Shown here one piece after another: positions 15,627 through 64,000 of a stretch of 64,000 nt of DNA. Source of the DNA: Macrostomum lignano. Lineage: Eukaryota. Both the position numbers and the translations under genes were made by a program. The notes beneath the pieces are model-generated. The model had not been told where the DNA came from. It searched no databases and saw only the letters and a program-made list of their open reading frames with translations. Position 1 is the first letter of the stretch. Every line of letters begins with the position of its first letter. The stretch is taken from positions 279,487 through 343,486 of the forward strand of contig NIVC01000896.1 of NCBI GenBank assembly GCA_002269645.1, written 5' to 3'.

Positions 15627-15949
15627 TAATCTACGCAGAGGAAGTTCATCAATTTGAATATTTGTGGCGACTGAATAGATTTAATTGCTTATATTGTAGC
15701 TACCAGTGACTACTCTAATCCTTACTTTTTTTCTTAGCGGTTCAAGGTCTTTTAAGTTTCTATGAGAGTGGTAAATATGATTTTAATAGTCAATCTACGA
15801 GCGCAATATTCAGACCATTCAAAAAATTTACTATTGACAACTATTAGGACAATGATAGATAGCATGTTTATAGGCGTTTGTAAATTTGTTTTACTTTTTA
15901 GCAAAAAATTAAATTAATAAATTGCAAGTTAGCTTCTTAGTTAAAGGCA

Positions 15950-16285
15950 GGAGGCTGTTTACCCTGGTGCACTTTAAATAACATTGTCACACAGCCCGGC
16001 GAGAGGCATTACTGCCCATTCCGCCAACTCCCCTGAGCAGGCACACAAGCGCGCGGATATGTATACAGTCATCCGCAAAGGCACACACTCACACATGGGT
16101 GTACAATGGCTTGGATTTAATAATTTATATCGCTTAGGCATGTACACTTCACTGTGTCTTGAGGTTGGCCCTTGAGGCCGTTACTTGCACGAGAGCAGAC
16201 CCAAGCTGCTGACTGCACTTGGAATCGAGTATGGGCCGCTGGCACATCAGAACGCCGCGTTAGGGCACAAGGCTACGGCCCCTAT
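15950..16285 (-). mobile_element. Putative tRNA-derived SINE
   Basis: The minus strand begins GGGCCGTAGCCTTGTGCC (A-box-like), followed by ACTCGATTCC (B-box-like), and ends in a GGGTAAACAGCC-type tail. No target-site duplication confirmed. Confidence 0.4.
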
Positions 16286-17352
16286 AATAAATTACTACGT
16301 AGTATAATAAAATATTTAATATAAAAGAAGCGTGTTTCCATAAGTGCTTCGATGGAACAAATTTGTTTTTATTGTTTTAATGAAAGACGTTAGACTGACC
16401 ATTCTAAACAGTTTAGCTAGGCTAAGTTAAAATAGCAGCAGAATTGCTCTCGCTAAAACTAACCGATGCCGAACTTTTGACTGAGAAAACTGTTAGCCAG
16501 GTGTATCTTTTCATTATTAAAACTAATTATAAATGATTTAAAAAGTTTTTTTTCCAAATTTTATCTTCCACTATTCTAGATATTCGTAAATTTCGCTTTA
16601 AGCTTCTCAAAAAATGAATTCAAACATCCTAAATTGATGACCATATGGTGTGGAATCGTCAGACATGAAAAAAATTATTAAAGAAAGCATAAAGCATTAG
16701 AGTATGAGTACATGTTTGAGTTGTATTTTATGAAATCGATCTTTTTGAATGTATCTAAATCACAAACTGCGACTGGCCCTCGATCGTAGTGCATCACTGA
16801 GTTATATTTTTCTCTAACTCTGATTCAGTTATTTATAGTAAACATAAAACTAACAGGCTCGTAAATTGCTGCTTCCTAATTCAATTGTTTATTCAAATAT
16901 GAACGATTATCTAATCAAGTACAACAACTCAGTTCAAATAAATCAAAGGAAACTAAGAGTTTTCTGCTTGCCATCGAATTTCTGCTTTTGTGTTATTTTG
17001 ACAAACGTTTAGTATAACTTAGCTAGTTAATATATAGGTGTATCTACAAGTTTATAGGAGTACGACCGTATATAGTAGTATATATAGGAGTATATTAAGC
17101 CATTTTTCTCTAATCGATTGCAAGCAGGCAAGATATACACGGTTACTAGCTTAGCTAGTATATATATACGCTATATATACGCTAAATATATTATCCTATA
17201 TAGAATTGGTTTTAGATTACAATGCAGCTTTATTGTATATATATTAACTTTTCATTCAAAACTTCAAAATTCACCTTTTCTGATTACAGAGACAAAGTGC
17301 TACATAACTAAACCTTATCTGGTATTCGAAGAAACGATCGAACTCAGTATCG

Positions 17353-20300
17353 ATGGCTGATTTTTCTGACATATTTGAGACCGAAAGCCCAGCTACTAGT
17401 GAGTGCGAACCTAAAATAAAAAAATTAGCAAATAAATTAGAAACAAACATAGGCTGATTCATGACGTAGCGTGTTCGAGATGTAGTTAGCGATTAATTAA
17501 TTATTAGTTATTTACTAATTAGTTAGCTAGTTTAATTATTAGTAGTGTTGACACGCAGGGTACGAGACAAAACGCCGAGTTGAGGAGAGTACAAAAACGA
17601 GCGCGAGGCAACAATTTAAATTGGCGGGGAAATCCGATTCATTTAAACCCAAGATGTCTATCAAAAAAGTAATAATAACTTGGACTTAATTAAATAAAAC
17701 TTAAAGTACATTTTTTAATAAATAAATTACATTAAATTATTAGCTGGGGAACCTGCCAATTAATCAACTACAATAATTTTAAGTAATAAAAACTCAGATA
17801 GAAACTAACAATTTAAGATGCTAACAACGTCGTCACAGATTGATTCCTCTCAGTAATTTTTCCCACATTTAAATTTTCAGTATTGAACGAAATTTCAACA
17901 GCTGCAGGTCTATTAGTTGTTGTTTAAAACCATTTCTTTATATCTTAAATACTTTAATAAGCCGTATATGCTTCAAAATTGCAGAATCAACCGAAACACG
18001 CCGTGCAACTCGCAGTGAATTTGGTAAGATTGATTTGGGGCTTGTGCATCAAAATTGGCCGAGAATGGGTTTTTTGTGCGATTCACACCCCTGATGACCA
18101 CTACTCGAGGTGCAGAGAGTGTACAGGTTTGACGATTAGAAACTCTAGGGCTGCTGTTCAGTATTGGCGCGCTTGCGTGTGCTCAGGAGGCAGAAAATTT
18201 TTTTAGGGCCTTGGGCAGGGGGTGACATGAATATCCTACTAAATATTATAAGAAACATACAATTATTTACGAAGATTTTTTTTAGAATAATTTTTGTTTT
18301 AAATTGCAAAAAAAACTTACAGGCACCATTCAAGATGTACAGGCAGGATCGAAGCTTCCCAGCTGGCAGGGAACATTCGGTGAGCACTTCTCAAGGACAC
18401 ATTAAGTAGACTTTTTTAATTGTCCTTTGCACTTCAACTATACAAATAGCTTTGTAAAACTTTTACAATTGCAGCTCATCAAAGGCTACTGCTAGTATTC
18501 GCTGATGAGACTACAGCAAAGATGGAAAACTACATTGAATTTATGAGCACTCGTTGCGGCTTTTACACTGCGAAGCTCGCCCTGAACAGTCACCTTGCCG
18601 AATCCGAGACCCTGTCTCGAGCACCAGTCAGGCAGATTGTCTGCCTAGTAATTTTCTCCGCTTCGCAGCCACAGCGCTACATGAAGGACTACCTAGATTT
18701 TCTAAACCAATTTGACGAATCCGTGGATCAGCTACTGCTGTACTGCAACTTGTCCGAGACAGAGACCCAAATCGATCAGGATCTGCGAAATCAATTCTGC
18801 AGCAGTGCTTTTCCTTATCGAAAGTCTAGCATTGCTTACACTTTCGGAACTTCCTATGGAGTCGGACGATTTTTTGATAAATTTAAGAACGATTGCAACT
18901 TGAAATGGAATCGTACTGTTGGCCTTTGTGACGTCCTGGAATCACTTGATATGGACCAGTCGTCTGAACTTTACATTAAAAAGCCTAGAAGCGAAAAGTG
19001 CTTCTTCCCACGCGAAATATTTTACCCTTGCAGCTCACAAGAACTGATCAAAATAGCCGGCATTGAGTCCTTCACCAACCGAGTTGACCCGGATACTCTG
19101 GCGTTATACGGTGATTTTATATATCTGAACAGCCGCATACAAAAGCCGCAGGCCTTGATCGTTCTAAACATCAAACTAGAGAGCGGCAAGACAAACAAGT
19201 CAATGCACGCAGACTGGAGGCGCCTTCTTTGGCTGCTTGATAAGCTCCAGTTCGAGGTCAAAGACGTTCAAACAGACGCGTCAAGCTGCAGTCAGCTTGA
19301 AGAATGCGTGAAGACTTTTGCTGATTCTGAGTTGCACGGTGACTCTTGCTGTCTGGTTGTGCTCTCCGAAGGCTGGCTAGCAAACAGCTGCATTGGCAAC
19401 ATCAGTAAGAGCATGGCCTTCGGAAAGCTTATCAAGGGTAAGCCGAGGCTGATCATCATTCAGGAGTACCAACCGAAGTCCTCAGAAGCATCGGATGCTG
19501 CGCCGAAGTCGCTCCCCCAATTCCTGCCTGACGCAGTGGAAGCGATGCGATTGCAGTTCAGAAACGACAAGCCTGAGGTCAGAGTCCATCCGCTAAGCGG
19601 AACCGTCTGGTGTCAGTCCGAAGCGTCGGACACCGAAAGCGACAATGCGACACCGCTGATTGGATCCATCTGCGAGACTTTCATCAATCACTCAGCCATC
19701 GAGGATTTGGTTTCGATGATTTCAATCATCAACGAGAGACTGCAGGACGCCCCACCCACTTGGTGTGTGCAGACTGCCAAACTTTTCTATGTTGGAAATA
19801 CTGAGTTCACAGGGAGCGGAAGCGCTAGTAAGTTTATTTATGTCTTTAAAAATGAAGGAGATTGTTTATTTCAAGTTTACTGTCAATATTAATCTTCAAT
19901 TTCAGGCAAGGCTCAATCCGAAAATACCCCTGAAAATCCTGCACCTGCAACCGATCCGTTAGCGAATTTGCAGACAATGCAAGGCTTAGCAGCAGAGTCG
20001 GACAGGCTGCGTCCCATTCTCGATCAAAACAGTAAGTATGAACTAAAAATTTGAGACAAAAATCGATTTGGAGGTCCCAAAATTTTTGAAGCTATAAACT
20101 TAATGAATTTCAGATCGCCCTGGAGTAGCACTGATTCTCACTGAAGGCTTGTTCGACAAAGTCCGAGATTATCAAATGTTTCTGGATTTTGCCGGCTTTC
20201 AAGTAATCTCGGAACGAATCGACGGTATTGGCGCTTCTTTGAGAGAAATTGTGACTTCATCGGTTGCTCAAAGCCCGCTAGCAGTTGTGCTGATCGTTAA

Positions 20301-21546
20301 GAAGCACCAGGTCGGAGCCGGCGTAGATGATGTAATTGCGTGCATGTCGGAGACTGCAACCAAGCACGGAAACAGTTCCCTACTCATCTACTTTGAGATA
20401 CTAGATACTGGTGAGCCGCCTTCTGAGATTCGCTTACCGAATGAACTGCCAGAGAAGTTCAGCACAGTTTGCTACCAGGGCACTCGAGACCGAATCGATC
20501 TCTGCCTTGACTTATTTCTAAAAACGCCGAGAAAGAAACCTAAAAACTGTCCAATTGTTGGTTATAACTTTGAGAAGCTACGTTACAGGAAAAAAGAGCC
20601 AAAAATGATGTACCGATCCAGCGATGGAAATCCTGGCTGGAAGCTGGCGCTCAAATGGCCAGAGGGCCGAAATATCAGGGGTGACGACATCATGAAACAG
20701 GACTTATTCCGCACAGCCAGTATGCGAAAGAAATGGTTCCCAAAGAAACCTATTCTACAGAATGTCACTATGCAGAGCAGGGCTCTAATCGTTCAGAATG
20801 TTGTCTTCAAATCCAGTGAGATCAGATTTGGCACTCAGAACGACTGTCAGAGGCTGACGGACTGCCTTACAGGCTTGGGGTTTCGAGTGTCAATCAGAAC
20901 GAACCTCACGGCGGTTGAAATCTTGCAAACTGTGCAGCTCTTTGCTGGTGCCAACGACCACGGCCGCTCCTGCGTCTTGGCAATCATGTCCCACGGATAT
21001 CTGGGAAAAATTTTGGGATGCGACGAAAGGACTGTGAAAGAAGCAGATATTCTTGATCAGCTGAGCAAAGGCAGTGGGCTTCAGGGTAGATCAAAGTTTG
21101 TTGTGTTTCAAGCGTGCAGGCCATTGGAAGAACCACATTCCAGCAGCTCAGCAGAGCGATTGATTAGACCCTATCCCGACATGGTGATTGCTCACTGCAC
21201 CTCCCCAGAGGAGTTCGGTTATCGAAATCACTTCGAAGGCAGCTGGTTCGTGCAGAGCCTGTGCTCCGTGCTGAATGAATGCGGAGCCGATGCGGACATC
21301 CTATCAGTGATAACTGTGGTGAACTACATGGTTCTGACCTGCTTCAATCGGTCCGACTGTAAAGATGAGCGGACTCAGCAGCCGTGGTGGCTGCTGCAAA
21401 CGAGAGGCGCTTTTGTGCTTGGCAGCGGCACACCAATGGAAGAAATGGGCGACACCAATCTTATTTCAGCTGCAGACGCTGGGAGCCGAAAGTGTCGTGC
21501 AACAAGCATTTGGAAAAATTTGAAGGCCTTTTTTGCGAGGTCGTGA
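17353..21546 (+). CDS. Multi-caspase-domain protein 2 (~985 aa), paralog of protein 1
   Basis: Predicted exons 17353-17398, 18475-19827, 19906-20031 and 20114-21546 are all joined by phase-1 introns. The final domain has AIMSHG and FQACR; the second domain has VLSEG and IQEYQ. Confidence 0.78.
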
Positions 21547-47666: not shown

Positions 47667-49505
47667 ATGTCCGATTTTACTTGCTCTTAATGTGGTCATC
47701 AATTCAGCAAAGCAGCCAATTTGAACCGACATCTCGAAACGACTAGATGTGGTCGCTGCTCATCTGAATCGTCTGGAGCCTTCGCGCCTCCGAGAAACGC
47801 ACGAGAGGCGCTTCAGTTTCTTGCGGTCGGTGGTAAGTATGTGAAAGTTTTTTTGAACCCAAACCTTTTTCCACGAACCGCAAATGAGAAGGAGTTCAAA
47901 CGTATTTGCGGTCTTAGTTATAGTGATTTCGATAGCTTCTCAGAAATGTTACCAGAAGTATCTCGCCTTCGTATTTTGACAAAGCCGTCTCGAATATTTT
48001 TGTACCTGAAGAAGCTTCGCCAAGGTTGCAGCTTTCAATCATTAGCTTTCAATTTCAACATTTCTGCCCAAAGAGCATGCGACATTTTTAGGGAGATTGC
48101 CAAGGAGCAGTACCTACGGGATCCATATCAACCGAGGTCGATAGCGTCGACTCCGATTCAGACTCTGCTTGAGGAAAATGTAGTACGCGATCAATTTATT
48201 CTCGGTGTATTTCACACACTACTCAAAGGCAAGAAGCTTGTTCTTCTAGTGGGTGATCATACTTACTTTTATCTCCCTAAGAGCAGCTCACACCACACGA
48301 AAATTCGAACTTACTTTTCCGGCAAGAAAATGAATGTGAACAAAAAATGGCGGTTGTCAACAGTAGAGGAAAAGTTATCTACACCGCTCCCCTTACCGCC
48401 GCTATCTCGCCAACAATGGGCGATGGGAATTTGACTGCAATGCAAGTTGACATGGAGGCTGAAGGACTAATAGAGCCCACTTTGTTGCGCATTCTATGCT
48501 CTGTACAGAAAGATTATCACGGTATTGGCATTTTCGACAAAGGTTACAGCCACCAGCTTTGTTCACCAACTTCGGTTAACTTCCGCGACTTTATAGAGAC
48601 TAATAGTAAAGGCTGCACGACGCTTCTATTTCCGACCAGTCCAGGTGACCGAGTTCTAAACGAGCAGTTTGAATTTGTAAATAATGAGGCTCCTGTTGGT
48701 GACCGATCAATACCAGGAAAGCTTACATCAATCGAAGCAAATACAAGTCGCTGGGCTACGCTTTTCCGTTATCTCGTAGAATGTAGCTTTGCTGCAATCA
48801 AGCAAGACAAATGCATAAATGAGCGACAGGAGCCGTACCAATGGCTACATGCCCCAGAGTTTACCGAACGCAGCCGGTTCGGTGTTGTTATTGAAAACCC
48901 CATGGCAAAATTCAACCGTTCGCATCCAGGATTTCAAGCTACAAGGAGTCTGCCGCCGTCATGGTCAGATTGCTCCATGTTCGAATATGGACGGAACTTT
49001 GCTAAACGTCTTTTCATTGCGAATGAGCTAGACGAAATTGAGCAACTTGAGTACAATTGCGATTTGACTCGAATACCAACGAGTTCTACCCGAAAATGGA
49101 CAGCAGTGGATCCCCTGGACCCTGAAAGTTCAGGGTTCCCCAGCGTTGACGAAAGAAATCTGGAAGAGCTTAGCATCGGCCCATACCACGTTCTTCAGTC
49201 AAAACGCTACATCGAAAACGTCAGAGTTCATGAGGTGCTCAGTAGCTACGCTGGAGACTCGTGGCGCGATTTCGAATTGTTGATTTCTGAACTGCCAAGC
49301 CATTTAAAATGCTGGAAGTTTCATCAGCGAGCGCCACCAAAGGGGTGGAGCAGTAAGTTTGGAGAATGGAGGCCATCTTGGATATATTTAGCCGTTCTTC
49401 ATTCCCGTCATCGGTCAAAAACTTACCGAGTTGTCCTTCGTGTTTGCGAAACTGCAAGCGGTAACCGATTCGGATTTCGTGACTCATGGCTGCTGCGTCT
49501 GCATG
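47667..49505 (+). mobile_element. ISL2EU/Harbinger-like DDE transposase, disrupted and cut off by the Polinton
   Basis: N-terminal C2H2 finger (C.*CGHQF..NL.RH, stop at 47688), HTH (LRQGCSFQSLAFNFNIS), GDHTYFYLPKSS..FSGKK, IFDKGY and RYLVECSF. Frameshift near 48340. The reading frame runs into AGTAGT at 49506. Confidence 0.65.
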
Positions 49506-49830
49506 AGTAGTATAGAAAAAGACGCTTCTAGACCCAGAGCACTTTTTTAATGACCGTTTTAAGGGTCTAGAGGGGGGACACGGGGGGTAAATAAAAAAAC
49601 ACATCTAAACACCCTTAACACATCTAATCACCCATAATCACCCCTAACAATAAAAATCACTTCCCAACACTTCCAAACACTCCCCAACACCCCCCTCGCG
49701 TCCCCCCTCTTAAGACCTTACAAACGGTCATTAAAATAAGGTCTGATCTAGAAGCGTCTTTTTCTATACTACTACTCTATAACCCCTTGCCCGCGCCGCA
49801 GGCGCGAAGGGTCTTTTTCTGTTACTAAAA

Positions 49831-50145
49831 ATGACCCGAGTTTACACCTTTTCTGTTAGTGATACTTTTGAGACTGTTGCTAAAAATGCAGAGATAATAA
49901 AACAACATATTTTGAATGGAATAATTGATGAAGTTTATTTAAAATATGACGACAAGCACGACCTAAAACTTTATCCATTAGAGCTAGATGAGATGTATGA
50001 TTTAGAACAAGAGGGTGAGTTAATATTTCAACTTGGAGATTATTTAAATTCGGATGATTGGGAGGTTAGATCAACAGATTCCGAATCAACAAATAGTTCA
50101 TATGAAACCAGTGATTCAGAGAATGAAAGTGAAATTTTTATGTGA
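49831..50145 (+). CDS. Small acidic viral hypothetical protein
   Basis: 104-aa ORF with an AAAATG start and a D/E/S-rich tail. Confidence 0.55.
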   Translation: MTRVYTFSVSDTFETVAKNAEIIKQHILNGIIDEVYLKYDDKHDLKLYPLELDEMYDLEQEGELIFQLGDYLNSDDWEVRSTDSESTNSSYETSDSENESEIFM

Positions 50146-50161
50146 AAAAAATATTTAAAAA

Positions 50162-50386
50162 ATGAACTATTATTCTATAACAGAAACGACATTTATTGTG
50201 AAAAATATATATAAAAAAATGAAGGTAAACTATTCCTACATCGGAAATGTGCCGATTAATGAACTTAATGAAAATTTAAGTTTGATAACAGTTGAACAAA
50301 TGTCAATAATAATATTAGTAACAATTATAGTAATAATATTGTTTTTGTTTGTTATAAAAAATTTACTACCATGTTGTCTTAAGTAA
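50162..50386 (+). CDS. Small viral membrane protein
   Basis: 74 aa with a single hydrophobic segment (IIILVTIIVIILFLFVI) and an AAAATG start. Confidence 0.55.
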   Translation: MNYYSITETTFIVKNIYKKMKVNYSYIGNVPINELNENLSLITVEQMSIIILVTIIVIILFLFVIKNLLPCCLK

Positions 50387-50396
50387 CTGTTTGAAC

Positions 50397-52007
50397 TTAG
50401 TTCGCAGACATTATCTGGTTCTCATAAAAAGAACCCAATATTTCTTCACCATCCTTATCAGCAATTATATAGGTTGTAGGGTTTGTATTTAAAACTTTAC
50501 TGATGGTAAATTTCTCACTTATTTTCCAATATCCTTTTCTTCCCTTTTCAAACTTATCTTTCCATTTATAGATATAAACAGAATCACCAACCTTAAAACC
50601 TATAGTTTTCTTTTTTTCAAAATCTCCAAAAGTAACCCTAACGTTTTCAGGATTGTTATAAGCTTGTTGAGGAGTCATCTTTATCGCCGAATGATATGAA
50701 TTATTATAATCTTTCACTACGTCTGGTAATATTTTTACCCATTTTTGGTTACCATTAAGACTAAACTGAAACCACAATTTCTTACCTAAAGTTCTATTAA
50801 ATCTTTCTATTAATGCGTTTTTACTCTCTCCATAAATAGAATAAATTTTATTAATATACTCCCCATTCGCGTCCTTTTTCCTTTCTTGTCCTTTTTCAAA
50901 ATGATATAATTTATACATATGAGGATTGTAAAATTCTTTTCCTTCGTCAACACACAACCTTTCACTTTTTTCTCCAAGACTTCTAAAAGCAGCAGCAACA
51001 TCCTCTCCCTTTTTGGATTTTAAAGGAACAGCCCACGCGTATCGAGTAAAACCATCTAATATGGTTAAGATATATTTATATCCTCTTTCGTTCGGCATCG
51101 ACATTAAATCAGCATACCAAATTTCATTCTTTTTGAAGTTCATGATTTTTCTATAAAATTTAGGTTTTCGATATTCTTTATGAAGAATCTTTGCCTCATC
51201 AGAACTTAACCCGCCGCCACTTAACAACAAACACTCAACACAATTATTTCCATGTTGATTATAATTAATTCCTAAACCAAATTTAACTTTAGACTGCAAG
51301 ATCTTTTTAACCATCCACCTAGTTAATTTTTGACCTACCGATAATCCCTGCAAGTTATCTAATCCTTGAATCATTTTTTGATCGGCTTCATGTTTTAATC
51401 TTAATGCTTCCTCGGGTGTGTTCTTATCAGCATCTCTGTATGCTAAGTCATGATAGTATGCTAACCAATCAATTCCATTTATGGGAATTGAATCGGCTTT
51501 TGGGGTGTCATCAGGATTTAATCTCAAATCTAAGCGAGTGCCGGGTAGTTTACCCTCAATCTTTCGAAAGAGGCTGGAGCACACCTTAAGCGGCGATAAT
51601 TACCGCCCATCTCCGTCTGCTCTCTGAACCTTCTCCTTATATTTAAAATACTTAGGAGCTTGGCTGCGCATTGCCACCGTGTCTTCAAGCTTTTTACCTT
51701 TGGGAAGAGGAGTTACCTCTGTTCCTTCAAAAGATTTCTCAATTGAAGTGGTACTTGAAGCAGTATGACGGGTTTCACGCAATTTGGAGATGTCGCCACA
51801 AATAGTGACTAGCAAGGACATTGCCTTCCTCACTCAGGCCACGGGTTAACCTGTGAAGTTCATTGATGGTAGGTGTAGTTCCCCTGTATATTTACCAGTA
51901 GTAAAGATTGGTGGTAAGCTTGTTAATCCTTTTTGAACATCTAACAATCCTCCTTCAAACACTATTTGATCGTTCCGAAGGAACGCGAACTTCGTTCGGT
52001 TGCTCAT
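50397..52007 (-). CDS. PLA2-like domain fused to a retroviral-type integrase (~435 aa), split by a group I intron
   Basis: Exon 1 (52007-51849) ends GELHLPSMNFTG. Exon 2 (51545-50397) starts PGTRLDLRL and contains IDWLAYYHDLAY (PLA2 HD) and the integrase D-D-E motifs WYADL, LCVDEGKEF and LIERFNRTL. Confidence 0.85.
51546..51848 (-). ncRNA. Group I intron ribozyme, subgroup IC1, 303 nt, no ORF
   Basis: Core motifs P AAAUUGCGUGAAA, Q CAAUGCGCAGCCAAG, R GUUCAGAGAGCAGA and S CUUAAGGUGUGCUCC occur in order. Helices: P1 with U-G at the splice site, P3 CAUCUCC/GGAGAUG, P7 GAGCA/UGCUC, P8, P9 with a GAAA loop, and P5abc. Confidence 0.9.
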
Positions 52008-52557
52008 TTTTAATAGCCATAAAAATACATGATAGCACCAATTGTTTTGCAAACTCTTCAATGGTTGGTTGTTGAACTTTTTTATAGCGATTATCTACGC
52101 TAGTTAAGTATCTTTTATTTCTCCAATTTTCAGACTTTTTAATCTGATCATCGTCTTTGTAACTAAATGAAGAAGCAGGAATGAAATGATCAATATCTAA
52201 CTTTCCAGTATAATTTTTTGGAACATAATAATTTCTTGTGAAATTTAACCAATCAAAAAAGAATTCTTTTGTGCAACCAAGATATGAGATATAGTCCTTG
52301 TCATTAAAATTTTTCAACGCCCAATTTATTCTATTTCTAATTAAAACAATATGTTTGTAATTATCATCAGTGTGATACTTATTTTTTCTATATTCATTCC
52401 ATTTATCTTTATTGTTTTTTATCCAAATAGCAGATGAGGTATTATGACAAGATCGACAATCATTTCTAAATTTTTTTGAATCATTTCTCCAAAAATAAAA
52501 TTCTTTCGTCATCGGTTTTTCTTGTTTACACTTAGTACAAATCTTATTAGTTTCCAT
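51955..52557 (-). CDS. HNH-family endonuclease with an N-terminal CxxC/CxxC zinc module
   Basis: CTKC..CRSC, then YLGCTKEFF..LDIDHFIPASSF..ENWRN..SVDN, a pattern typical of phage and giant-virus HNH nucleases. Confidence 0.7.
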   Translation of the reverse strand: METNKICTKCKQEKPMTKEFYFWRNDSKKFRNDCRSCHNTSSAIWIKNNKDKWNEYRKNKYHTDDNYKHIVLIRNRINWALKNFNDKDYISYLGCTKEFFFDWLNFTRNYYVPKNYTGKLDIDHFIPASSFSYKDDDQIKKSENWRNKRYLTSVDNRYKKVQQPTIEEFAKQLVLSCIFMAIKNEQPNEVRVPSERSNSV

Positions 52558-52582
52558 TTTATAAAAAATAAATTTAACAATT

Positions 52583-53251
52583 AAACTCCAGTATGTCCAG
52601 CAGCTTTCGCAGCAGCTAAAACAAGTTTTCGCGGTGTTTTAAATCCATCACCAACAGCTGGTTTGTTATTTATAGAATTAACAATCCATTTATACAAGCT
52701 GGTATTTTTAACAGCTCCTCCTAACTCATCATAAAAAATTCTAGCACTTATTAATTCATCCCTAGTATATAAATCGGGTTAAATTTTACCCTAGGGTTCG
52801 TAATAATATTAAATGCTCCGCCCAATTCTCTATATAGTTCATTTCGATCTTTAACAACGTTACCAATTCGATAATTACCACCACCTAAATCTGTCACAGC
52901 AATACTAGTTGGTGCAGGTCTCGGATATTGATCAACTCCACCCCTAATCTCTTCACGTCTAATTTCTGCAACTCTAAATATTGCTTGATCAGTCTCATAA
53001 GCAGGCGGCTCATCCAAAATTTCATCCTCTTTTGGCTCCGTATTTTTAGCAATTTTTTCCAGAAGATCTTTATCTGTTTTTTCTAGTTCACTAATTTTCC
53101 CAGTAATAGGATTAACAAAAGGAGCAGCAAATCTTTCACCCGCTAATTGTATTCCTAACTTTCTTTTTTGTAAATTTCTAACAAAATCAGAATATCTTTG
53201 CTTCTCTTTATAAATCGCTAACTCTCCATCAACGTCCATAAATTGACTCAT
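52583..53251 (-). CDS. Polinton hypothetical protein (one frameshift)
   Basis: 166-aa ORF with an AAAATG start. A 1-nt shift near 52775 extends it to a stop at ~52583. Confidence 0.5.
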
Positions 53252-53285
53252 TTTTTAACATAAAAAACTTTTTTAACTTAAAAAA

Positions 53286-54758
53286 ATGGCTGAAACAAAA
53301 ACTATGTGGAGTGATAAATTTCATTTCAAAAAGCACCGACAGTATATTAATGAGGTCAGAGCAAGAGATTTAAATTATACCCTACCAACAAGTGATAATT
53401 CAAATAACTTTACTACTGGAACGGTAACTTTTGACATCGGCGCAACCAACACTATATTGGATATGAAAAATGCGTTTTTCCGCGTTAGATGGTTGTATAC
53501 TAGAAATGATGGAACTGCTCTTGCAGCCGGAGATATCGCAGATCGATCCGGAATAATAATAGAAAATGATTGGTTTTATAAATGTTTTTCCCAAGCTCAA
53601 CTAACTGTTAATGGTGCTGAGGTTGAGACATCATCAAACCCCGCAGAGATTAATGGAGTTTTGAAACATTTAAATTATACTTATTTATCAAAACAAGTTG
53701 GTGATAATGTTGGGTGGATGCCGGATAAAGGTAACGGTCAAGCAGTAGTTTTCCCTAATGTACAAAACGCAGCCGGTGCAGATACTGCAGCGCTAATTGT
53801 TTACCTTAATACAAACATAGTTCCAGTTGTAACCACTATGACTAATACAAAAGATATTAATACTGGTTTTATAGATCGTCAGAATAAATTCCCAGTCGCG
53901 GTTTTAACCACAGCAACAGCATATGAGCAGGACTTTTCAATCTTTCCACTATTTGGGTTCTTCTCACCAAATCGGGTATGGAAAGGATTAAAATTTGGGA
54001 TACAGTTGCAAATATCTGGTGGATATCAGCCTAGGATACTTTATGGAACCTCAATTTCAACCGATATAGCAGTTCGTATAGATTCAATTCAATTAGTCGT
54101 ACCAACTATTGAGGTAACAGCCCCACTTTTAAAACACATCGATAATCAGTTAACGCATGATCAGGAAATATTTTATTTGAATCGTCGACATTTTATGCGA
54201 ACCATTAATAACAATCAGGATTCATTCCAGTGGCAAATACTGACATCAAAACGTCGGGTGAGATATATTTTTGTTTGGTTTAAGATAACAAATAGAAGGA
54301 GTAAAAGAGCAAATGGGGATTTATATTGGCTTCAATCCGGTGCCATAGCAGCACAAGCAGCCACCGCAACAGACAATGCGGCTGCAGCTATTAACGAGTT
54401 TAATGTTCAGAATATCCGCCTGCAGGTTGATGATCAATATTATCCGGTTAAAGATCCTCTTAATCTAAATATTGCAAATAATAATGTTAATGATTTTATA
54501 AAATATTATCAAGATTATGCCAAAAATGAAGCGTATGCCGTCCCTCAGTACACACCCACAGAGTTTCTAAACATCCATCCAGTGGTTGTTTATGATCTAA
54601 CGGCACAGAAAGAAAACGTAGCCAATATTGGACTTAATTATATGTTAGAGATTAATAAAACCGGTAATCAGGCACTTGACGCCCACGTATTGTTTCTAGA
54701 GGAATATATGTCAATTGCTAAAGCTGATGGCACGATTGTTAGGGACGCGCCGCTGTAA
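53286..54758 (+). CDS. Major capsid protein (double jelly-roll, Polinton type)
   Basis: 490 aa, beta-rich, with the motif TVTFDI..LDMKNAFFRV..CFSQAQLTVNGAEVE. It lies next to the ATPase and penton genes. Confidence 0.8.
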   Translation: MAETKTMWSDKFHFKKHRQYINEVRARDLNYTLPTSDNSNNFTTGTVTFDIGATNTILDMKNAFFRVRWLYTRNDGTALAAGDIADRSGIIIENDWFYKCFSQAQLTVNGAEVETSSNPAEINGVLKHLNYTYLSKQVGDNVGWMPDKGNGQAVVFPNVQNAAGADTAALIVYLNTNIVPVVTTMTNTKDINTGFIDRQNKFPVAVLTTATAYEQDFSIFPLFGFFSPNRVWKGLKFGIQLQISGGYQPRILYGTSISTDIAVRIDSIQLVVPTIEVTAPLLKHIDNQLTHDQEIFYLNRRHFMRTINNNQDSFQWQILTSKRRVRYIFVWFKITNRRSKRANGDLYWLQSGAIAAQAATATDNAAAAINEFNVQNIRLQVDDQYYPVKDPLNLNIANNNVNDFIKYYQDYAKNEAYAVPQYTPTEFLNIHPVVVYDLTAQKENVANIGLNYMLEINKTGNQALDAHVLFLEEYMSIAKADGTIVRDAPL

Positions 54759-54807
54759 GCGGCGCAGGTCTCCGACCGTCGCCCCTATTTAAATTATTTC
54801 TTTAAAA

Positions 54808-55558
54808 ATGGTAAAGGCAAAACACGATAAGATATTTCCAAATGATCCTTTTCTTTGTTTAGTAATTGGTGGGTCGGGTAAAGGAAAAACACACTTTGTT
54901 TATGACCTGTTAACAACAGATGGAATGTTAGACTATAATAATTTAATAATTTATACTAATAAACCTAGAATAAAATATTATGAATTTCTTAAACATGGAT
55001 TAAAAAACAAATTAAAAAAAGATGTCTTGTTTAGAATGTTAAGAGCATATGAGCAATATGAGGATGATGACGAACCGCGATTTAATCTAGCAGACATTGA
55101 GGATTTATGTAAAACAATGGCACAACAGCCAGAAAACATCACCGATCGCCCCGAAGGGTCGCGGACTTCGTCCGATCGCGCCCAACTGTTAGAGTATCAA
55201 CCCGATTAGCCTATGATCAAATTCCAAAACATGATAAAACACTAATTATTTTTGATGATTGTATTAATGACGGTGATCAAGAATTGCAAAAGGAAATTTT
55301 TGTTAGTGGTAGAGGAGATGGAATTGGAGCTTTTTATCTAACACAGTCTTTAGAGAATTAGAATCGATTATAAAAAAGAATGCAAGTTGTTGTGTAATGT
55401 TTGATTTAGATAATTATGATTTACAAAATATTCACGCGAGATTTAATCCCGGATTGGATGCAAAACCATTTAAAAGTATGTGTAAAAAAATTTGGGATGA
55501 TAGCCAATACAAACATATTTATATCAATCCGAGGTTAGAAAGGAAAATCGAATCTTAA
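54808..55558 (+). CDS. A32/FtsK-like packaging ATPase (two frameshifts)
   Basis: Walker A GGSGKGKT. In the shifted frame come Walker B LIIFDD and VSGR..FYLTQS. Shifts near 55170 and 55348. Confidence 0.85.
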
Positions 55559-55610
55559 CAAATTTGATAAAAGAAGATAATGAGGAAGAAGAATAATTCC
55601 CACTATAAAA

Positions 55611-56396
55611 ATGACTACAAATTTAAATACTATAAAACAATTGGTAGATCGAACTAATTCAAAATTTAGTACAACATTACAGTTTATAATGACAACCAGC
55701 GAGCAACGGATTCAATTGCGCGATCCATTACAACTTGATCAAAGCCTAAGTTATCAAATAGGTTTAATACTATTTTCGGTTTTCAACATGCCTCAATTAA
55801 TTAATGCAACAAATAATCAATTTAGATATTCTAAAGATTCCGGAGCCAATTGGACAACATTTAGCGTTAACCCAGGAGCGTATAGCTATACTGATTTGAA
55901 TGCTTATATAGAAGGAGAATTAACAACTAATGGTGATTGGGTAGCAGGAGCAATTGTTATAGGTGTTGATTTACCGTCTGGCAGATTCACACTATCACTA
56001 GGATCCGGATATCAGGTTGATTTCACAATTGCAAATTCACTCAGAACCATACTTGGATTTAATTCCCGAATAGTTACCACATCAAGCACCGGTGATACAG
56101 TTGGAAATATAGAGGGTGGAGTAAATACAATTAATATAACAACCGACATATCAAACGGTGGTTATATAACAGACGATAACGGAGTTTTGGTTCAACGTGG
56201 AATTATTTATTCAATCCCATTTCTTGCTGTTCCAATTGGAGAGAAAATGATTGTATCACCTCAAACCCCAATATATTACCCATTAAATCAATATAATGTT
56301 CAATCAATTTATATTAGGATTGTAGATGAAAGCGATAGATTAATAAGTTTTGGTGGGCAGTCAATAACAGTGATTTTACGTATAAAACAGGTTTAG
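55611..56396 (+). CDS. Minor capsid (penton) protein
   Basis: 261 aa with NSLRTILGF, SPQTPIYYPL and IRIVDESDRLISFGGQSITVILRIK, typical of the Polinton single jelly-roll mCP. Confidence 0.85.
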   Translation: MTTNLNTIKQLVDRTNSKFSTTLQFIMTTSEQRIQLRDPLQLDQSLSYQIGLILFSVFNMPQLINATNNQFRYSKDSGANWTTFSVNPGAYSYTDLNAYIEGELTTNGDWVAGAIVIGVDLPSGRFTLSLGSGYQVDFTIANSLRTILGFNSRIVTTSSTGDTVGNIEGGVNTINITTDISNGGYITDDNGVLVQRGIIYSIPFLAVPIGEKMIVSPQTPIYYPLNQYNVQSIYIRIVDESDRLISFGGQSITVILRIKQV

Positions 56397-56406
56397 TACT
56401 GTAAAA

Positions 56407-56616
56407 ATGGGTAATCGAACAACATGTTCGCGTGCAAAGCACGATAATAATAATAATTTAATAAAAAAACAATCAGAAAAAGTTAAAAAAGCTGAAGATA
56501 ATTACGAACTAGAACTAGCAAAATTAAGGCAGTTACAAGCTGATAAAATAAGAAAGGAATTGTTAAAACCCACACCTACGAAACTAACTAAAACCAAGAG
56601 TTTTTCAGGAACATAA
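56407..56616 (+). CDS. Small basic viral protein starting MGNRTT
   Basis: 69-aa ORF with an AAAATG start, tightly packed between the penton and protease genes. Confidence 0.55.
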   Translation: MGNRTTCSRAKHDNNNNLIKKQSEKVKKAEDNYELELAKLRQLQADKIRKELLKPTPTKLTKTKSFSGT

Positions 56617-56617
56617 A

Positions 56618-57058
56618 ATGACCATGACGTGGGATGATTTTAAACAAAGATATGGAACAGACACAACAAGCAATATCGAATTAACAAATTGGGCGAGGCA
56701 GTTAAAAATAAAACCATTCAGATGTGTTATGCGAGATGAGATCAAAGACTTACCACAATATGGATGTTTCATTGTTAATATTGAAACAACAAAAGAAAAT
56801 GGTGTTCATTGGTCAGCAGTTTATTCAAAACCAAAACTTGTTTATTTTTTTGATTCATACGCGCTTCCTCCGTTACAGGAAATAAAAGACAAATTTAATC
56901 ATACTAAAAATCGTTTATGTGGAGATCATCACGAACAATTTCAAACCTTTGATAAAAGTTATTGCGGGCAAGCGGCGTTGTATTTTTTATATCGACTTTC
57001 GAATGAAGCTCGTGTAAACCCCGAAGTATTTAAGACTATTTTAGACTCTATAAAATAG
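56618..57058 (+). CDS. Adenain-like cysteine protease
   Basis: Catalytic H-D-Q-C set in GVHWSAV, FFDSY and QFQ..SYCG. Confidence 0.9.
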   Translation: MTMTWDDFKQRYGTDTTSNIELTNWARQLKIKPFRCVMRDEIKDLPQYGCFIVNIETTKENGVHWSAVYSKPKLVYFFDSYALPPLQEIKDKFNHTKNRLCGDHHEQFQTFDKSYCGQAALYFLYRLSNEARVNPEVFKTILDSIK

Positions 57059-57068
57059 ACAGTAAAAA

Positions 57069-59120
57069 ATGTTATTTTCTGGAACACCCTCATGGAACGG
57101 AACAACAAGTAGTGGTGGTGGTGGCACATCTGGTGGAATAAGTGTTACATTTGGAGATAATCGATATATTAATGAGGATGAAGGTTATAAAAAAACTGAA
57201 ATTGATAATAAATTAAATTTAAAAAGAAATGTTGCAGATTCCTATACCAAAACTCAAATAGATGATTCACTAAATCTGAAACGGAACGTAGCCGATTCCT
57301 ATACCAAAACCGAAGTTGATAATTCATTAAATTTAAAACGCAATACAGCCGATTCCTATACCAAAACAGAGGTTGATAATTCATTAAATTTAAAACGCAA
57401 TACAGCCGATTCTTATACCAAAACCGAAGTTGATAATTCATTAAATTTGAAACGGAACGTAGCCGATTCTTATACCAAAACCGAAGTTGATAATGGATTA
57501 AATTTAAAAAGAGATGTAACTGATTCTTATTCTCGAACTGATTCTGATTCACGTTATGTTCAAACCACCGCAACCGGAAACCTAGATATGAGCAACAACC
57601 GAATTATAAATGTTTCAATTACAACTAGTGATTCAGTGGTTGATAAGAACTATGTCGATAATCAAGTTGCCACTCGTAGTGGTAATATTAATATGAATAA
57701 TTTTAAATTAACAAATTTATTATTTGGAACAGAGAACGCAGACTCGATAACTCTAGGCCAAGTAAACGAGCGAGCTAATGCAACCGACGCCGATATTTTT
57801 ACCACGCCGCTTACATCAAATACTTCAAATCCTGATGTTGTTCTTACAGCATCTGAAAATGGCAACACAGCTTTTCGAGTTGGAGATGGAAGCCTTGCGA
57901 CACAATGGTCACCAAATACCGGAACCACAACCAATATGGAAATTCAATTTGAATTTTTAGGTTATAATAGAAGAATATTTGAATTAAGAATTACAGGCAG
58001 TGAAACAATTGAGATACCCTCGGGGTGGTCGGTTCGCGCAAAAAATGTTGCTACCGATTCATGGACGACATTAACTACGTCGGGATCACCAGTTCAAGCA
58101 ACATCATTTGCTCTATCTAATTTAACGACTAATTTTTGGAAATATTATAGCGTATTCTTCCCAACTGGTGGTACCGGTACACAACCTATCGAGGTTCGTC
58201 AAATACAATTATTTGAACACCGTGTTGAAATTCAAGATCTTAATTGGCCAACTCAAATACTTTCTGCAGTTCCGCGAGCGTACGTAGATCAGCTAGCTAC
58301 TCCAACATCAAATGGTAGAATGTCTGGAAGCGATAAAAATAAATTGGATGGAATACCTGCTATTGATGCGGCCTTGTTCGAACCAGTAATTTGCAATTGG
58401 TCTGGATATCAAAATCCAACAACCGCCGGAGATATATATCCAGTCGGTTCTTTAATTGGTGACGCTTCTTATATCGATTATCAAAATGGAGCTAGAATTA
58501 CTCGTGAAACCGCAGTGTAAGTGGGCTTTACAATTAATTTCACACATTTTCAAAATATATCTGCGTCTTTCTTTTTCCGAGTTGCTAATGCTACAGGAGA
58601 TGGTGCAGATGCGGTTTGGTTTTATGCATACTGTCACCAACGTCCAACATCGGAATTTGGACTGGATTATCAACCGACGCCGGATTGATAGTTTTTGCAA
58701 GTGAGTGGCATGATAGGTTTGGAGTTGTTTGGAGTAATAAAAAATCAGACGGATCTACGGTTCGTAACGATGTTAGTAGTGATGCGGATCAAACTGTAGC
58801 CTATGCTAATATTGATAACGGCGATTGGCATTTTTTGAATTAATATTTTAAATCAAAGGGTTTGGTACCGATTACAGTCATACAATGTTGCTGGTGATTC
58901 TTTTACCCTCATTGGACAGAACGTTTTCACATATGATAGTGGAACTTGGGGAACTTTAGATAAATCTGGAACCCTTATGGGTTTTGGTGCTCGAACTGGT
59001 GGAGCGGATGCTGCACATTTTATTCGTGGTGCGTTGTATGTGGTAGTACGTCGTTTGGTTATGTTTTTCCCTCTACTGCTTATTTGGAAAAACCTCCTAC
59101 TCAAATATAAAATATTTATA
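57069..59120 (+). CDS. Fibre/spike-like protein with 19-aa repeats, a discoidin-like domain and a frameshifted LamG-like C-terminal part
   Basis: Six units of LNLKRNxADSYTKTEVDNS, then GNLDMSNNRIINV and GDGSLATQWS..PSGWSV. Broken frames beyond 58520 include DNGDWHF. The region after 58520 may be a separate gene. Confidence 0.6.
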
Positions 59121-59122
59121 TA

Positions 59123-60428
59123 CGAGGGACACTCCAAAAGTTTTGCAATTCAACCACTTGCGCAAGTCGCACAATCTTCAAAATCAACCCTCTGTACAAT
59201 AAACATGTACATAGTCCCCACCTCAATTTTTTAGTAATTTCATACATATATGCCTGCTCAGCCCCCAGTCAAAGTCAGTGACTCCTTAACCTGTACTGCT
59301 GCGGCCATGGAATTTGAATCGTGAGCAGAATCGGCTACTAATTTGGTACTGCCACAAGCGAAAGCTCACGGCGCTTGAGACTCATGCCGAGCTACTAGCA
59401 ACATTGGAGGCTCAAGCACCGTCATATGCTACGGTTACACGCTGGTACCGCGAGTTCCAGGCCGGCAGGACCAGCTTTTCTGACGACCCCCGGCCCGGGA
59501 GACCTCCGACAGCAGCGACGGAGGAAAACATCGCTGCAGTGCAGGAGCTGATCCATCAGGATCCGCGAATCACCACGGACACGTTAGCTATGAATGTTGG
59601 CATCGGATCGGCAGCGGTCGATACGATTCTACACGATCACCTCAGAGTCAGGAAGCTTTGTGCCCGATGGATACCCCACATCCTGACAGATGCTCAGAAA
59701 CAGGCCCGCATGGAGTTCTGTCAGTTTCTCATCGATCGATATGAGCACGGGAGCCATCAGCGCCGCTCTGAAGTCATCACTGGTGATGAGACGTTTCTCT
59801 ATCATTTTGACGTCGAGACAAAGCGCAGCAGTGCAGAGTGGGTGCCGGAAGGTGGGCAACGACCCCTGAAAGCAAGGCGGTCCCGGTCCCAGGGCAAGCG
59901 ATGTTTGCCATCTTCTTCGACTCACAAGGCGTGGTGGCGATGGCGAAGCTGGAGGGTCAAGCTACAGTCACTGCTCGATGGTAACTGAAGAGTGCTTGCC
60001 TGTCGTGATCGACAGCGTGACCCAGAGGGCACCAAGGACGGAATGCGAGGGCGGAAGCTTCACCATGACAACGCCCCCGCCCACACACGGCTGCTGCAAC
60101 TCGAGCGTTCCTGGACCAAGAGGGCATTGCAACGTACCACACCGCCCTACTCACCAGACCTCGCCCCCTGCGACTTCTGGCTCTTTCCAGAAATCAAAAA
60201 GTCGCTTAGGGGTGCAGGTTTCAGTCCGACGAGGAGCTGGAGCAGGCGGCGAAGGAGGCGACTGACGGCATCCCAATTGAAGAGTTCCAGGGCCTCATGA
60301 ACAAGTGGCTCGGAAGAGCGCACAAGTGTTTGCAGTTCCGCGGGAGCCTACTTTGAAGGATTGTAATAGAAAAGTTTAGCAGAATTAACTTTAAATAGTC
60401 GAATTGCAAAACTTTTGGAGTATCCCTC
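59123..60428 (+). mobile_element. Mariner (DD34D) transposon with a frameshifted transposase, inserted in the Polinton
   Basis: TIRs GAGGGACACTCCAAAAGTTTTGCAATTC / GAATTGCAAAACTTTTGGAGTATCCCTC with TA flanks. Motifs WIPHILT, ITGDET, HHDNAPAH and YSPDLAPCDFWLF. Confidence 0.9.
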
Positions 60429-60443
60429 TAAAATTTGTATAAA

Positions 60444-60770
60444 ATGGCTTTTAGTAGAACTCCATCGATGCGGCAAAATAATGTTATTATTCCTATTCCT
60501 AAACAAGAATCAAATATAAAAACATTCAAATCTCATACCAAATTTTTATTTAGTACTGTAAATGTTCAGGATAATAAGAAGCTTCAAGAATTAATTAAGT
60601 TATTAAAAAATCATATTATACTTCAAGAGTTTTGGAAAATAGGATTTAAATGGGAGAAAAAAGAAAGAATCACTCCAATACAATACCTATTGAGCTCCGG
60701 GCAAATACCCAAAGAGCGCGGGGAATTCATTTTGGTGCTATTAAAAATAGACGAGAATGTCGGTATCTGA
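60444..60770 (+). CDS. Viral hypothetical protein
   Basis: 109 aa from an AAAATG start. Confidence 0.5.
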   Translation: MAFSRTPSMRQNNVIIPIPKQESNIKTFKSHTKFLFSTVNVQDNKKLQELIKLLKNHIILQEFWKIGFKWEKKERITPIQYLLSSGQIPKERGEFILVLLKIDENVGI

Positions 60771-61400
60771 AGCAGATAAATGGGAACGCGACCGGTTCAA
60801 CCAACGTAAAGGTCAGATGTTAAGTAATGTTGATCGAATAAACTATGATTATGATTTATATGCTAAAAAAGTAAGAAGAGTTTCAAACCATATAAGAAAT
60901 ATGGACTTTTTCAATATTGGATTTGGAAGCTTATCAATGTTATGTGTAATCGTTTTAGGTATTTTACAATCTATTCCAACTCTTAATTTATCTCAATTAT
61001 TTTTAGGTATTTCAATTGGCTCAATATCAGGTTTTGAATTGATCAGAACTTATCAATACTTTTAGCAATTAAATTATATCTTAAAAAAAGAAAGGAAAAA
61101 TATAAATCATTAAGAGATTGCCAAGCAATATAAAAATCATTATATTTATATGTGCAAAAAATATTGGATGACGGAGAGATAACGATTCATGAATTATCAA
61201 CCGCGGTTGAGTTATATGAAAAATATTTAAAAGATAGAAATAGAATTTTAGATGTTGAAACTTTTACCGATATGGAATTAAAAGAGTTGAGACTCGATAA
61301 ACCCAAAGCTCCACCTATAGAAACATTAGGTATTTACGAACCTGAAACTATTGCTACTGGGGCACAAAGCCCGCGGTCAGGAAGTGCTGTAGAACTTTCA
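60757..61400 (+). CDS. Two-TM Polinton membrane protein (GasderminX-like), frameshifted
   Basis: Two hydrophobic segments, then in a shifted frame KILDDGEITIHEL..YEKY, which resembles the LxDGxIxxxE..KY motif I recall from this family. Confidence 0.5.
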
Positions 61401-62828
61401 TGTTGTTTAGTTTTTCTAATGCATATGTTATATATTCTTTCCCAAAGTGGTAACTCTCTTCTGATCCTAGGTTTAAATTTTTTATCAATACATAAAAATT
61501 CTAATGACTTTTTCAATAACATTTCGTTAGGTATGTTACCAATCCTTATAAACTTTGTATTCTCTCGAATAAGAAAATTGAAATAATATCCAACTAAAAT
61601 TAAAATCCTTTCGGAGTCTTTCGAACTTAATCCCTTTCCTTTATTTAAATGGAAAAAGTTATTATATAAATAAACATTATTTCCGGAATTAAAATTGGAT
61701 CAGAAATGTCTCTTGTAAGATTTCTTAAAATTGTGTTTTAAAATAGTAATATGAGTTTTCAATCTTTTTTGTTTTTTCAAATTGATATATTTTAGAACAT
61801 GAATAACACATATGATATATATTCTCCGTTTGCTGTTTGCCCTCTGTGCATAGTCACATTACATTTATTACAAACATAAATGTCTTTCATTTTTTTGTTA
61901 TTTTTTTAGATTAAAAATGGAAGCTGGTTCAAAACCGATTCTAATGTGATTAATTATCTCACACCCAATATGTTGGAGAATAAAGAATATAATATTATAT
62001 GTTTGAGACAGGTTAAATTTATTGGGCTTCAATCAATATTTTTACAATTAGATGGGCAAAAATTTTATGTCTAAGCGGAGATGATGTTAAAAATTTTCCT
62101 GTTTTAGTTATTAATAAACCTAAAGCGTTTGTTATGAAATACTGCAACGAGGGTGGATTGCAATTTAAACTAAAACAAACAAATAATAAAAAGAGTGATA
62201 GGACTGTAAAATTGGCGGCTGTTTGGGAGGATGACGACGAAGACTAAATTTTTTATAAGAAAATGGATACGATAAAAATCCTTATCACTAAAGAGCGTGA
62301 ACTTAATGATATTAATAAAAAAAAAATATAATTATATCTCAGAAATATCATGAGTATGGGGACGATATGTTTCCCATCCGATATGAAATAGATAAAAGAA
62401 AACGTTTTTTAATCTGCAGATTGCTTTATGCTGAAAATAGTAATTGAAATTGAAATAGATAGGTTGGTTAGAAAAATAAAAAAACTTAGGAAAAAAATAA
62501 AGGATTGTTTAAGTTACCCTGACGACTGCGAGGAAATTGGCCTTCAATAATATATGAAATCGAAATGGATATTTATGCTAAACAATTACATGCTTTAGTT
62601 TTTTTACGAAGGGTCGCGACGATAAGTAATTTTTCTGTTAATCTCTTCCAGTTATTCAAGACTTTTTCCTTATTTAATTTTTTAAGTTCTTTTGGAAATG
62701 TTGAATAATAATTATCTATATCTTTTTCATATTCTAGAAATGTATTATATTCACAATCACATTCGATTCACAATCACAATCGTAATAATAATTATTTATT
62801 GCCGCTTTGTATTCATTATATTTACTTA

Positions 62829-64000
62829 TTATATCTTCTTTTTGTTTTTTATTTTTATCATATTTTTTATCTCTTCTTTTAAACCATATGGATATGTTTT
62901 AATTTTATCATCTAAATATCTTTTATCATCAAATGGACTTAATGTTTTTTTATCTGTCTCGATGACAAACATCTGATGCTTATCTGAATTTAATCGATAT
63001 TGTGGAGCATGATAATTTTCAATTGTATTAAGGTAATCTAAAAGTACGTTTTTATAATCATCAAATGTTATCTTTTTTACTGCTGCTCTTGATACCCCTT
63101 TTATTTTTTTTACCTCTCCCTCCTGTCCTAAAACCTTAAATGCATAGCATTTTGATCTTATTGCTATAAACTCGGTTATGATTTTGCTATTTAATTCATC
63201 TTTCATTTTAAGTACAACTTTTTTATTTTGATCTGATTTTAAAGGATGGTTATCCGGATAGTCGGAGGTATCCAATGTATCCTTAATTTTTTCCATATCT
63301 TTATAGACATCGAACCTTTGGTTCGCGGACTGCCCGTCCATCTGTTTCAACCTTAAATACCAAACTGTCGGTGTCTGCATATATTGGATAGTTATCTGGC
63401 CATGTTTTTTTATAACATCATAATAGTATTCATACATTACCAGCTTTGCAAAATCTAAAAACAACCATTCAATAAATATTGGTTTAAGAAATTTTGTTGT
63501 TTTATTTCTCATATGAATACCCATAAAGTTATCATCAAATTTTATAAAGTCTTTAAAGTTAGGTTTTGAGAAATATTTCTTTGCTTTATCAATATCCTTT
63601 TCTAAATGGAATTGGGTTCTATCTCTAATATTTTCAACCGTTTTTCCATAAAAAGCATTATTCATTAATTTCCAATAATCTTTCTCAAAATTTGTTTTTG
63701 ACATCTGTCTCTGATTTGAATTAAATCAATTATATTTAGCTAACCAATCTTCCTCAATAAACGATATTGTTCGATGTACTTTGTACACTTTTAATCCCTG
63801 TTTTCATAAAATTGTAGAAGCTTTATAATGCACTACATAGTTTTTCTTATCATGTAAATTTAATATTAATTTTTTTTGTGCTAGATGTTTTGCATTATCT
63901 ACTTTAGATAATCTTTTTGTGTTTGTGATAAATCATCTTCATTAACTGAACAATGCTCTGGAGCTAAAGGTATTTATATGTTTTTTGCTTTTGCTTCCCG
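62829..64000 (-). CDS. Protein-primed DNA polymerase B, C-terminal part (frameshifted; N-terminus outside the window)
   Basis: KLMNNAFYGK, YADTDS in a shifted frame, IAIRSKCY, KIKGV and LSPFDDKRY. Upstream fragments read KLILNLHDKKNYVVHY. Confidence 0.92.

Follow-up and report, generated by a model that had tools for sequence, protein, structure and literature searches.

The locus considered here lies in a window of 64,000 nucleotides of the Macrostomum lignano assembly (contig NIVC01000896.1, positions 279,487 to 343,486). It places a free-standing HNH-type nuclease gene beside an ORF-less group I-type intron, and raises the question of whether the two form a homing pair, as in the collaborative homing described previously (PMC3984707, PMC11296320, PMC6083498), or whether the intron has another partner. 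The intron interrupts a PLA2-integrase gene in an element with Polinton/adintovirus-like hallmarks, namely an rve integrase, an A32-like ATPase and a double jelly-roll capsid protein (Table 1). ORFs labelled as polymerase and protease by their motifs had no Pfam hit. The window copy, a member of family A, is decayed: the frames of the upstream gene, the ATPase and the polymerase are broken, and a mariner element is inserted in it. A second family of copies, family B, encodes a PLA2 that is about 55% identical to that of family A.

Several other features of the element and its surroundings were recorded. Six 57-nt tandem repeats lie within a 483-aa, likely fibre, gene (57129-57584), and the window also includes four tandem caspase-domain ORFs (11924-21546). 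Together with an ASC-type channel gene in the DNA flanking the Polinton, the caspase genes point to an animal host. Palindromic insertions of about 30-33 nt recur in Polinton genes and in the intron in both families (in the window at 51969-52002, 55141-55185 and 63301-63340, and in the intron of locus L035); no match to them was found in a third family, D. Polymerase ORFs of families A and B carry an Endonuclease_7 domain (L096, L104 and L108), and HNH domains in Polinton polymerases have been described (10.1101/2023.08.22.554363).

Table 1. Features of the Polinton locus, in positions of the window
Feature	Position	Strand	Remarks
PLA2-integrase exon 2	50397..51545	-	remaining PLA2 domain and rve integrase; internal ATG at 51374
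ORF-less group I-type intron	51546..51848	-	303 nt, between GGN and CCN (Gly and Pro); terminal A; conserved core helices, U.G pair in P1
PLA2-integrase exon 1	51849..52007	-	ends in Gly codon GGT; junction from intron-less alleles
HNH-type (beta-beta-alpha-metal) nuclease gene	51955..52557	-	200 aa, N-terminal CxxC..CxxC; free-standing, in an exchangeable one-gene slot
Palindromic insertion	51969..52002		about 33 nt, where HNH and exon 1 overlap; makes the HNH tail longer
Upstream slot-bounding gene	52579..53251	-	222-227 aa in most sister copies; frame stops at 166 aa here
Likely major capsid protein gene	53286..54758	+	23% match to a family B gene that matches Pfam DJR-like_dom
Polinton body	49200..64000		runs to contig end; GGNCC absent but for 7 sites within the inserted mariner (59124-60428)

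The intron and its ends

The intron ends were set by comparison with natural intron-less alleles. Scored against the RF00028 covariance model, the intron reached 62.1 bits (E 5.7e-15; cut-off 50); a whole-window scan at the gathering threshold had missed it. P1 has a U.G pair at the 5' splice site, and the core helices P3, P4, P7, P8 and P9.0 are present (helices named from the Rfam alignment). The intron contains no nuclease ORF, as had been claimed, and a 73-aa frame crosses its ribozyme core. Of 69 family A loci, 53, the window copy among them, have A as the terminal base and the other 16 have G; G also ends all six readable family B introns and that of L153, an independent metagenome contig. 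The window intron thus lacks the canonical terminal G and is an A-ending variant, not a canonical group I member. Despite the terminal A, the G-binding pair in P7 is unchanged, and P9.0 supports the register. Across 51 distinct intron sequences, 37 of which end in A, helix cells are paired in 255/255 cases in P1, 356/356 in P2, 355/357 in P3 and 255/255 in P7, with two-sided changes in P2 and P3. Because so many family A introns end in A, they may splice poorly; an A-ending intron has a precedent in Coxiella. No spliced joint was found in the contigs of seven distinct runs, presumed to be RNA, and one joint in presumed-RNA contigs was rejected as splicing, as it carries the letters of an intron-less DNA allele. 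Translation continued past the 5' splice site meets an in-frame stop.

A second, different intron type occupies the same 5' site in other copies and occurs with either of the two nucleases described below (L003, L004, L055-L059, L061, L062, L134 and L147-L151). Its 3' junction alters the Pro-Gly codons, and it did not reach E 0.01. One copy (L296:2317-9053) carries an insertion of about 6.7 kb within its intron.

Two nucleases in one gene slot

The original prediction held that an HNH-like ORF, on the same strand, overlaps the start of the intron-containing gene and ends about 110 bp from the intron site. All of this is real: the ORF overlaps exon 1 from its ATG (52007) by 53 nt, 106 nt separate its end from the insertion site (between 51849 and 51848), and the D-H ... 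N ... N residues of HNH enzymes are present as D123, H124, N147 and N156, the catalytic roles of which are presumed from the beta-beta-alpha-metal fold. All 81 members of an HNH-family alignment share H124, N147, N156 and K159, and nearly all have D123. A Pfam scan of the window HNH gave no HNH match, PHROG endonuclease matches were weak (best 7e-8), and PF01844 was matched, weakly, by 6 of the 81 relatives. The structure model has a mean pLDDT of 55, with values below 50 across the catalytic half, and was too poor for a fold search; sequence searches against solved structures gave no useful match. Among nine copies, dN was lower than dS in the catalytic half in all 36 pairs, and this half is, judged by its codons, under purifying selection. 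The N-terminal half, probably the DNA-binding one, is far more variable (dN up to 0.66). Residues 1-90 fall into about five exchangeable types joined to one conserved catalytic half.

The family is not rare, since a profile search returned 17,451 relatives; a word-based protein search gave no matches. The nearest Atlas clusters are viral, and 131 matches were found in the genome assembly (764 Mb). Of at least 122 viral loci with an intron core motif, 80 were retrieved, and 79 were left once a duplicate had been dropped. In 16 of the 79 an HNH-family ORF lies at a distance of up to 3.3 kb, with none beyond it, and in four of these 16 the ORF ends no more than 85 nt from the motif. The HNH of P0028 reads into the intron core common to Polinton introns (84.6 bits). 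In L205 and L191, giant-virus capsid genes are split by group I introns with HNH ORFs inside them, L191 having three Rfam intron hits; these nucleases belong to the same HNH family (hhalign probability 100) and their introns have a related core, the difference being that the window HNH is free-standing. As the family is tied to group I introns, the HNH is a credible homing-type nuclease.

Co-occurrence was assessed by comparing 109 HNH loci (131 matches, of which 22 were second pieces of a locus) with 150 scored of 516 PLA2 candidates. HNH lies upstream of PLA2 at 99 loci, 96 of which have an intron-sized gap (50 checked directly) and three of which are intron-less. These three keep an intact junction, two of them alongside full-length HNH frames, contrary to the expectation that carriers of the nuclease would lack its intact target. 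The junction of one reads GGC, and this copy is not a simple processed intron allele, because the exon of the intron allele ends in T. At 36 of 40 family A loci without HNH, another gene, of 161-171 aa where intact, fills the slot, and the intron is present in all 36; the remaining four, truncated or rearranged, were left out. Within family A, intron-less copies make up 3/99 with HNH and 0/36 with the other gene, a difference that does not reach significance (Fisher p 0.56). Carriers of the two genes share exon haplotypes, none of the flank haplotypes marks HNH carriers alone, and slot gene, intron type and flanks are found in many combinations. These counts indicate that HNH is neither required for the intron nor strictly barred from intact junctions. 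An assembly search found no intron-less allele with the window's own exon letters, and four further intron-less PLA2 hits considered as controls were dropped as relics (three PLA2 fragments and one interrupted gene).

The other slot gene encodes an Eco47II/EcoO109I-like nuclease. Pfam RE_Eco47II is matched by L074 at 26.2 bits (cut-off 25.9) and by L035 at 20.6 bits, below the cut-off. D65, E76 and K78 are invariant, and the nuclease has both the PD-(D/E)xK motif and the fold, the class of which is described in PMC3424549: its model (pLDDT 89) has EcoO109I as the best full-length match (Z 9.9, rmsd 3.6 over 165 residues). EcoO109I cuts RG^GNCCY (PMC3089450), and the Eco47II system has been linked to GGNCC (PMC10305163); by analogy, the nuclease of the sister copies is predicted to cut GGNCC. 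In family B, the intron at this site measures about 800-900 nt in 11 loci and contains a homologue that is 60-69% identical; another 20 alleles are intron-less. L153 likewise has the nuclease inside the intron, and an intron read-through tail is found on 12 of 16 metagenome homologues (5 of these 12 helped to build the profile). The nuclease is nearby in none of 23 intron-less alleles, of which 20 are family B alleles that are without it trivially, as it lies inside the missing intron. The nuclease tree gave no direction of movement and a plasmid search no match; among the other outside-locus scans, L153 was the sole informative contig, L297 being a capsid-gene locus with neither nuclease. A methyltransferase scan of 44 ORFs at E 0.001, which covered nearly all of one family A copy and part of family B, found none.

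Depletion of GGNCC

The element itself is depleted of the predicted target. Observed and expected GGNCC counts are 0/7.1, 1/8.7, 2/9.8 and 0/5.8 in family A, and 0/11.1 and 1/4.4 in family B, with 1/4.6 and 2/4.4 in further copies. In all six element sets, GGNCC has the lowest observed/expected ratio of 526-528 words; p-values on such counts overstate independence, because the copies are related (two depleted families and one control family). Host DNA has 97 sites where 91.5 are expected, and family D, from the same genome, is not depleted (9/8.7 and 20/17.0). In the stretches of family D that were read, the PLA2 Gly-Pro is uninterrupted, with no Eco47II-like nuclease or intron. Low GC as the cause was rejected, the expectations being Markov-corrected and family D not being depleted. 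No other word is at zero; CANTG, CCNGG and CTNAG stand at about half in family A, which we do not take to mark an HNH target. In the host DNA of the window (1-49000), GATC is depleted (141 versus 235 expected).

The depletion extends to the proteins. Gly-Pro codons always read GGNCC, and Gly-Pro occurs twice in 17,044 aa of five copies, both times at the PLA2 site, where 30.5 occurrences are expected and Pro-Gly occurs 25 times. In intron-less copies the PLA2 junction is the only GGNCC or one of two, and the intron splits precisely this sequence, between GGN and CC: the Gly-Pro codons of PLA2 are the one conserved GGNCC of the lineage. At L075 (runs X4 and X5, from one study), an intron-less family B allele has a changed Pro codon and has lost the GGNCC. 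The proposed pairing of HNH and intron is supported only in part; both a predicted target matching the junction and a genome-wide footprint belong to the Eco47II-like nuclease and not to HNH.

Partner of the intron and related systems

The explanation that we favor, at a probability of roughly 0.6, is that the GGNCC cutter is the intron's partner and immunity target in a form of restriction without methylation, and that HNH is an exchangeable second nuclease with another target. The element would protect itself through loss of GGNCC sites, and the intron would hide, in DNA, the one GGNCC fixed by protein function while being spliced from RNA. Intron-less kin would be cut once, at the junction, and then repaired from the intron allele, so that a five-base cutter could act as a single-site homing enzyme because the intron-less rival has essentially one GGNCC. 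Such a cutter would also cut host or foreign viral DNA, often, and should be toxic to the host, whose DNA retains GGNCC. HNH-bearing copies would keep the intron as protection from sister copies. Against this explanation stand the expected host toxicity, the terminal A of most family A introns, the intron-less contrast within family A, which alone is not significant, and the score of L035 below the Pfam cut-off.

Collaborative homing by HNH, as originally proposed, would mean that the intron-less PLA2 junction is cut or nicked by HNH as well, two unrelated nucleases having converged on a single site while competing for the slot. It is still a candidate because the HNH family is intron-encoded elsewhere, as in the viral loci, the capsid-gene introns and the P0028 read-through, and the adjacency, the catalytic residues, the selection on the catalytic half and the intron-sized gaps at 96 of 99 loci all fit it. 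We consider it unlikely nonetheless: HNH copies occur with intact junctions, the intron persists without HNH, its flanks are not specific to HNH carriers, a search for an intron locus of P0028 found none, and the probable DNA-binding half diverges although the junction codons are fixed. The window HNH is likely not the main partner of the intron and shares only a gene slot with the restriction-like enzyme.

Homing might also be dispensed with altogether, the slot nucleases degrading host or co-infecting viral DNA in the lytic phase as a weapon and the intron spreading by survival selection and ordinary recombination. Five-base sites occur far too often to suit a classical homing enzyme, GGNCC is retained in host DNA and family D, and slot gene, intron type and flanks are combined in many ways. 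However, family B, L153 and, to judge by read-through tails, most metagenome homologues have the nuclease inside the intron, which is the layout of a mobile intron; the purging and masking of GGNCC is a step common to this account and to the explanation favored above. We regard a weapon without homing as improbable. A relic is more improbable still. Here the A-ending intron would no longer splice, PLA2 would be lost, the integrase would start at the internal ATG and HNH would be a neutral passenger, in keeping with the terminal A beside an unchanged P7 pair, the in-frame stop, the altered Pro-Gly codons of the second intron type and the decay of the window copy. Yet the helices are kept, A-ending introns included, with two-sided changes in P2 and P3, and most scored family A copies show 89-100% identity across the stretch of exon 2 that belongs to PLA2.

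The closest known arrangement is F-CphI with the ORF-less psbA intron of cyanophage S-PM2 (PMC3984707, PMC6083498), where a free-standing nuclease likewise adjoins an ORF-less intron. The present system differs in that the virus is eukaryotic and integrated, two unrelated nucleases use the slot, and the probable partner resembles a restriction enzyme and has a short predicted site. F-CphI and its DHHRN relatives have DHDH flanked by CX2-4C and CX2C (PMC6083498), whereas the window HNH reads DHF, without the second His and the following CX2C; by the motif given there, it is not an F-CphI-family enzyme. Protist Polinton-like viruses carry RF00028 introns of about 300-380 nt together with HNH and GIY-YIG homing-type genes (PMC12220804). 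Sections 12 and 16 of that paper place these introns in Rhodomonas, Paulinella and Desmodesmus only and contain no PLA2 site, Eco47II-like partner or site loss; its tables S11-S12 list introns and may bear on host range.

Eco47II (PF09553) and EcoO109I (PDB 1WTD/1WTE) resemble the Polinton nuclease in motif and fold, with a GGNCC-centred target predicted here; the Polinton enzyme, of 167 aa, differs in lying in or beside an intron and in having no cognate methyltransferase among the ORFs searched, protection apparently coming from site loss. On those ORFs, it does not qualify as a type II restriction-modification system, which calls for a cognate methyltransferase. Viral restriction enzymes are known from the restriction-modification systems of chloroviruses, which, in contrast to what is proposed for this Polinton, methylate their own DNA. 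I-Ssp6803I is an intron-encoded homing enzyme of PD-(D/E)xK restriction fold that reads a long site. No account of the present system in an animal Polinton was found in literature searches that covered few subscription papers.

Taken as a whole, the locus may represent methylase-free restriction in an animal virus, in which GGNCC and Gly-Pro are purged, an intron masks the site that cannot be recoded, the cutter serves as a homing enzyme against kin and a shredder of other DNA, the nuclease shifts between intron-encoded and free-standing states, an HNH of intron stock competes for the slot, and a terminal A is used in the splicing of most introns; we advance this full picture tentatively, at a little under even odds. 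It would be a variation on intron homing in which the means of self-protection may be new. Attention shifts accordingly from HNH alone to both slot nucleases, and nature provides, in the A-ending alleles, a test of the rules for 3' splice sites. Free-standing, intron-encoded and intron-less states coexist in a single genome, so that the route proposed to link collaborative homing with composite mobile introns can be tested directly. Through an integrating virus, group I introns have been placed in the chromosomes of the likely animal host.
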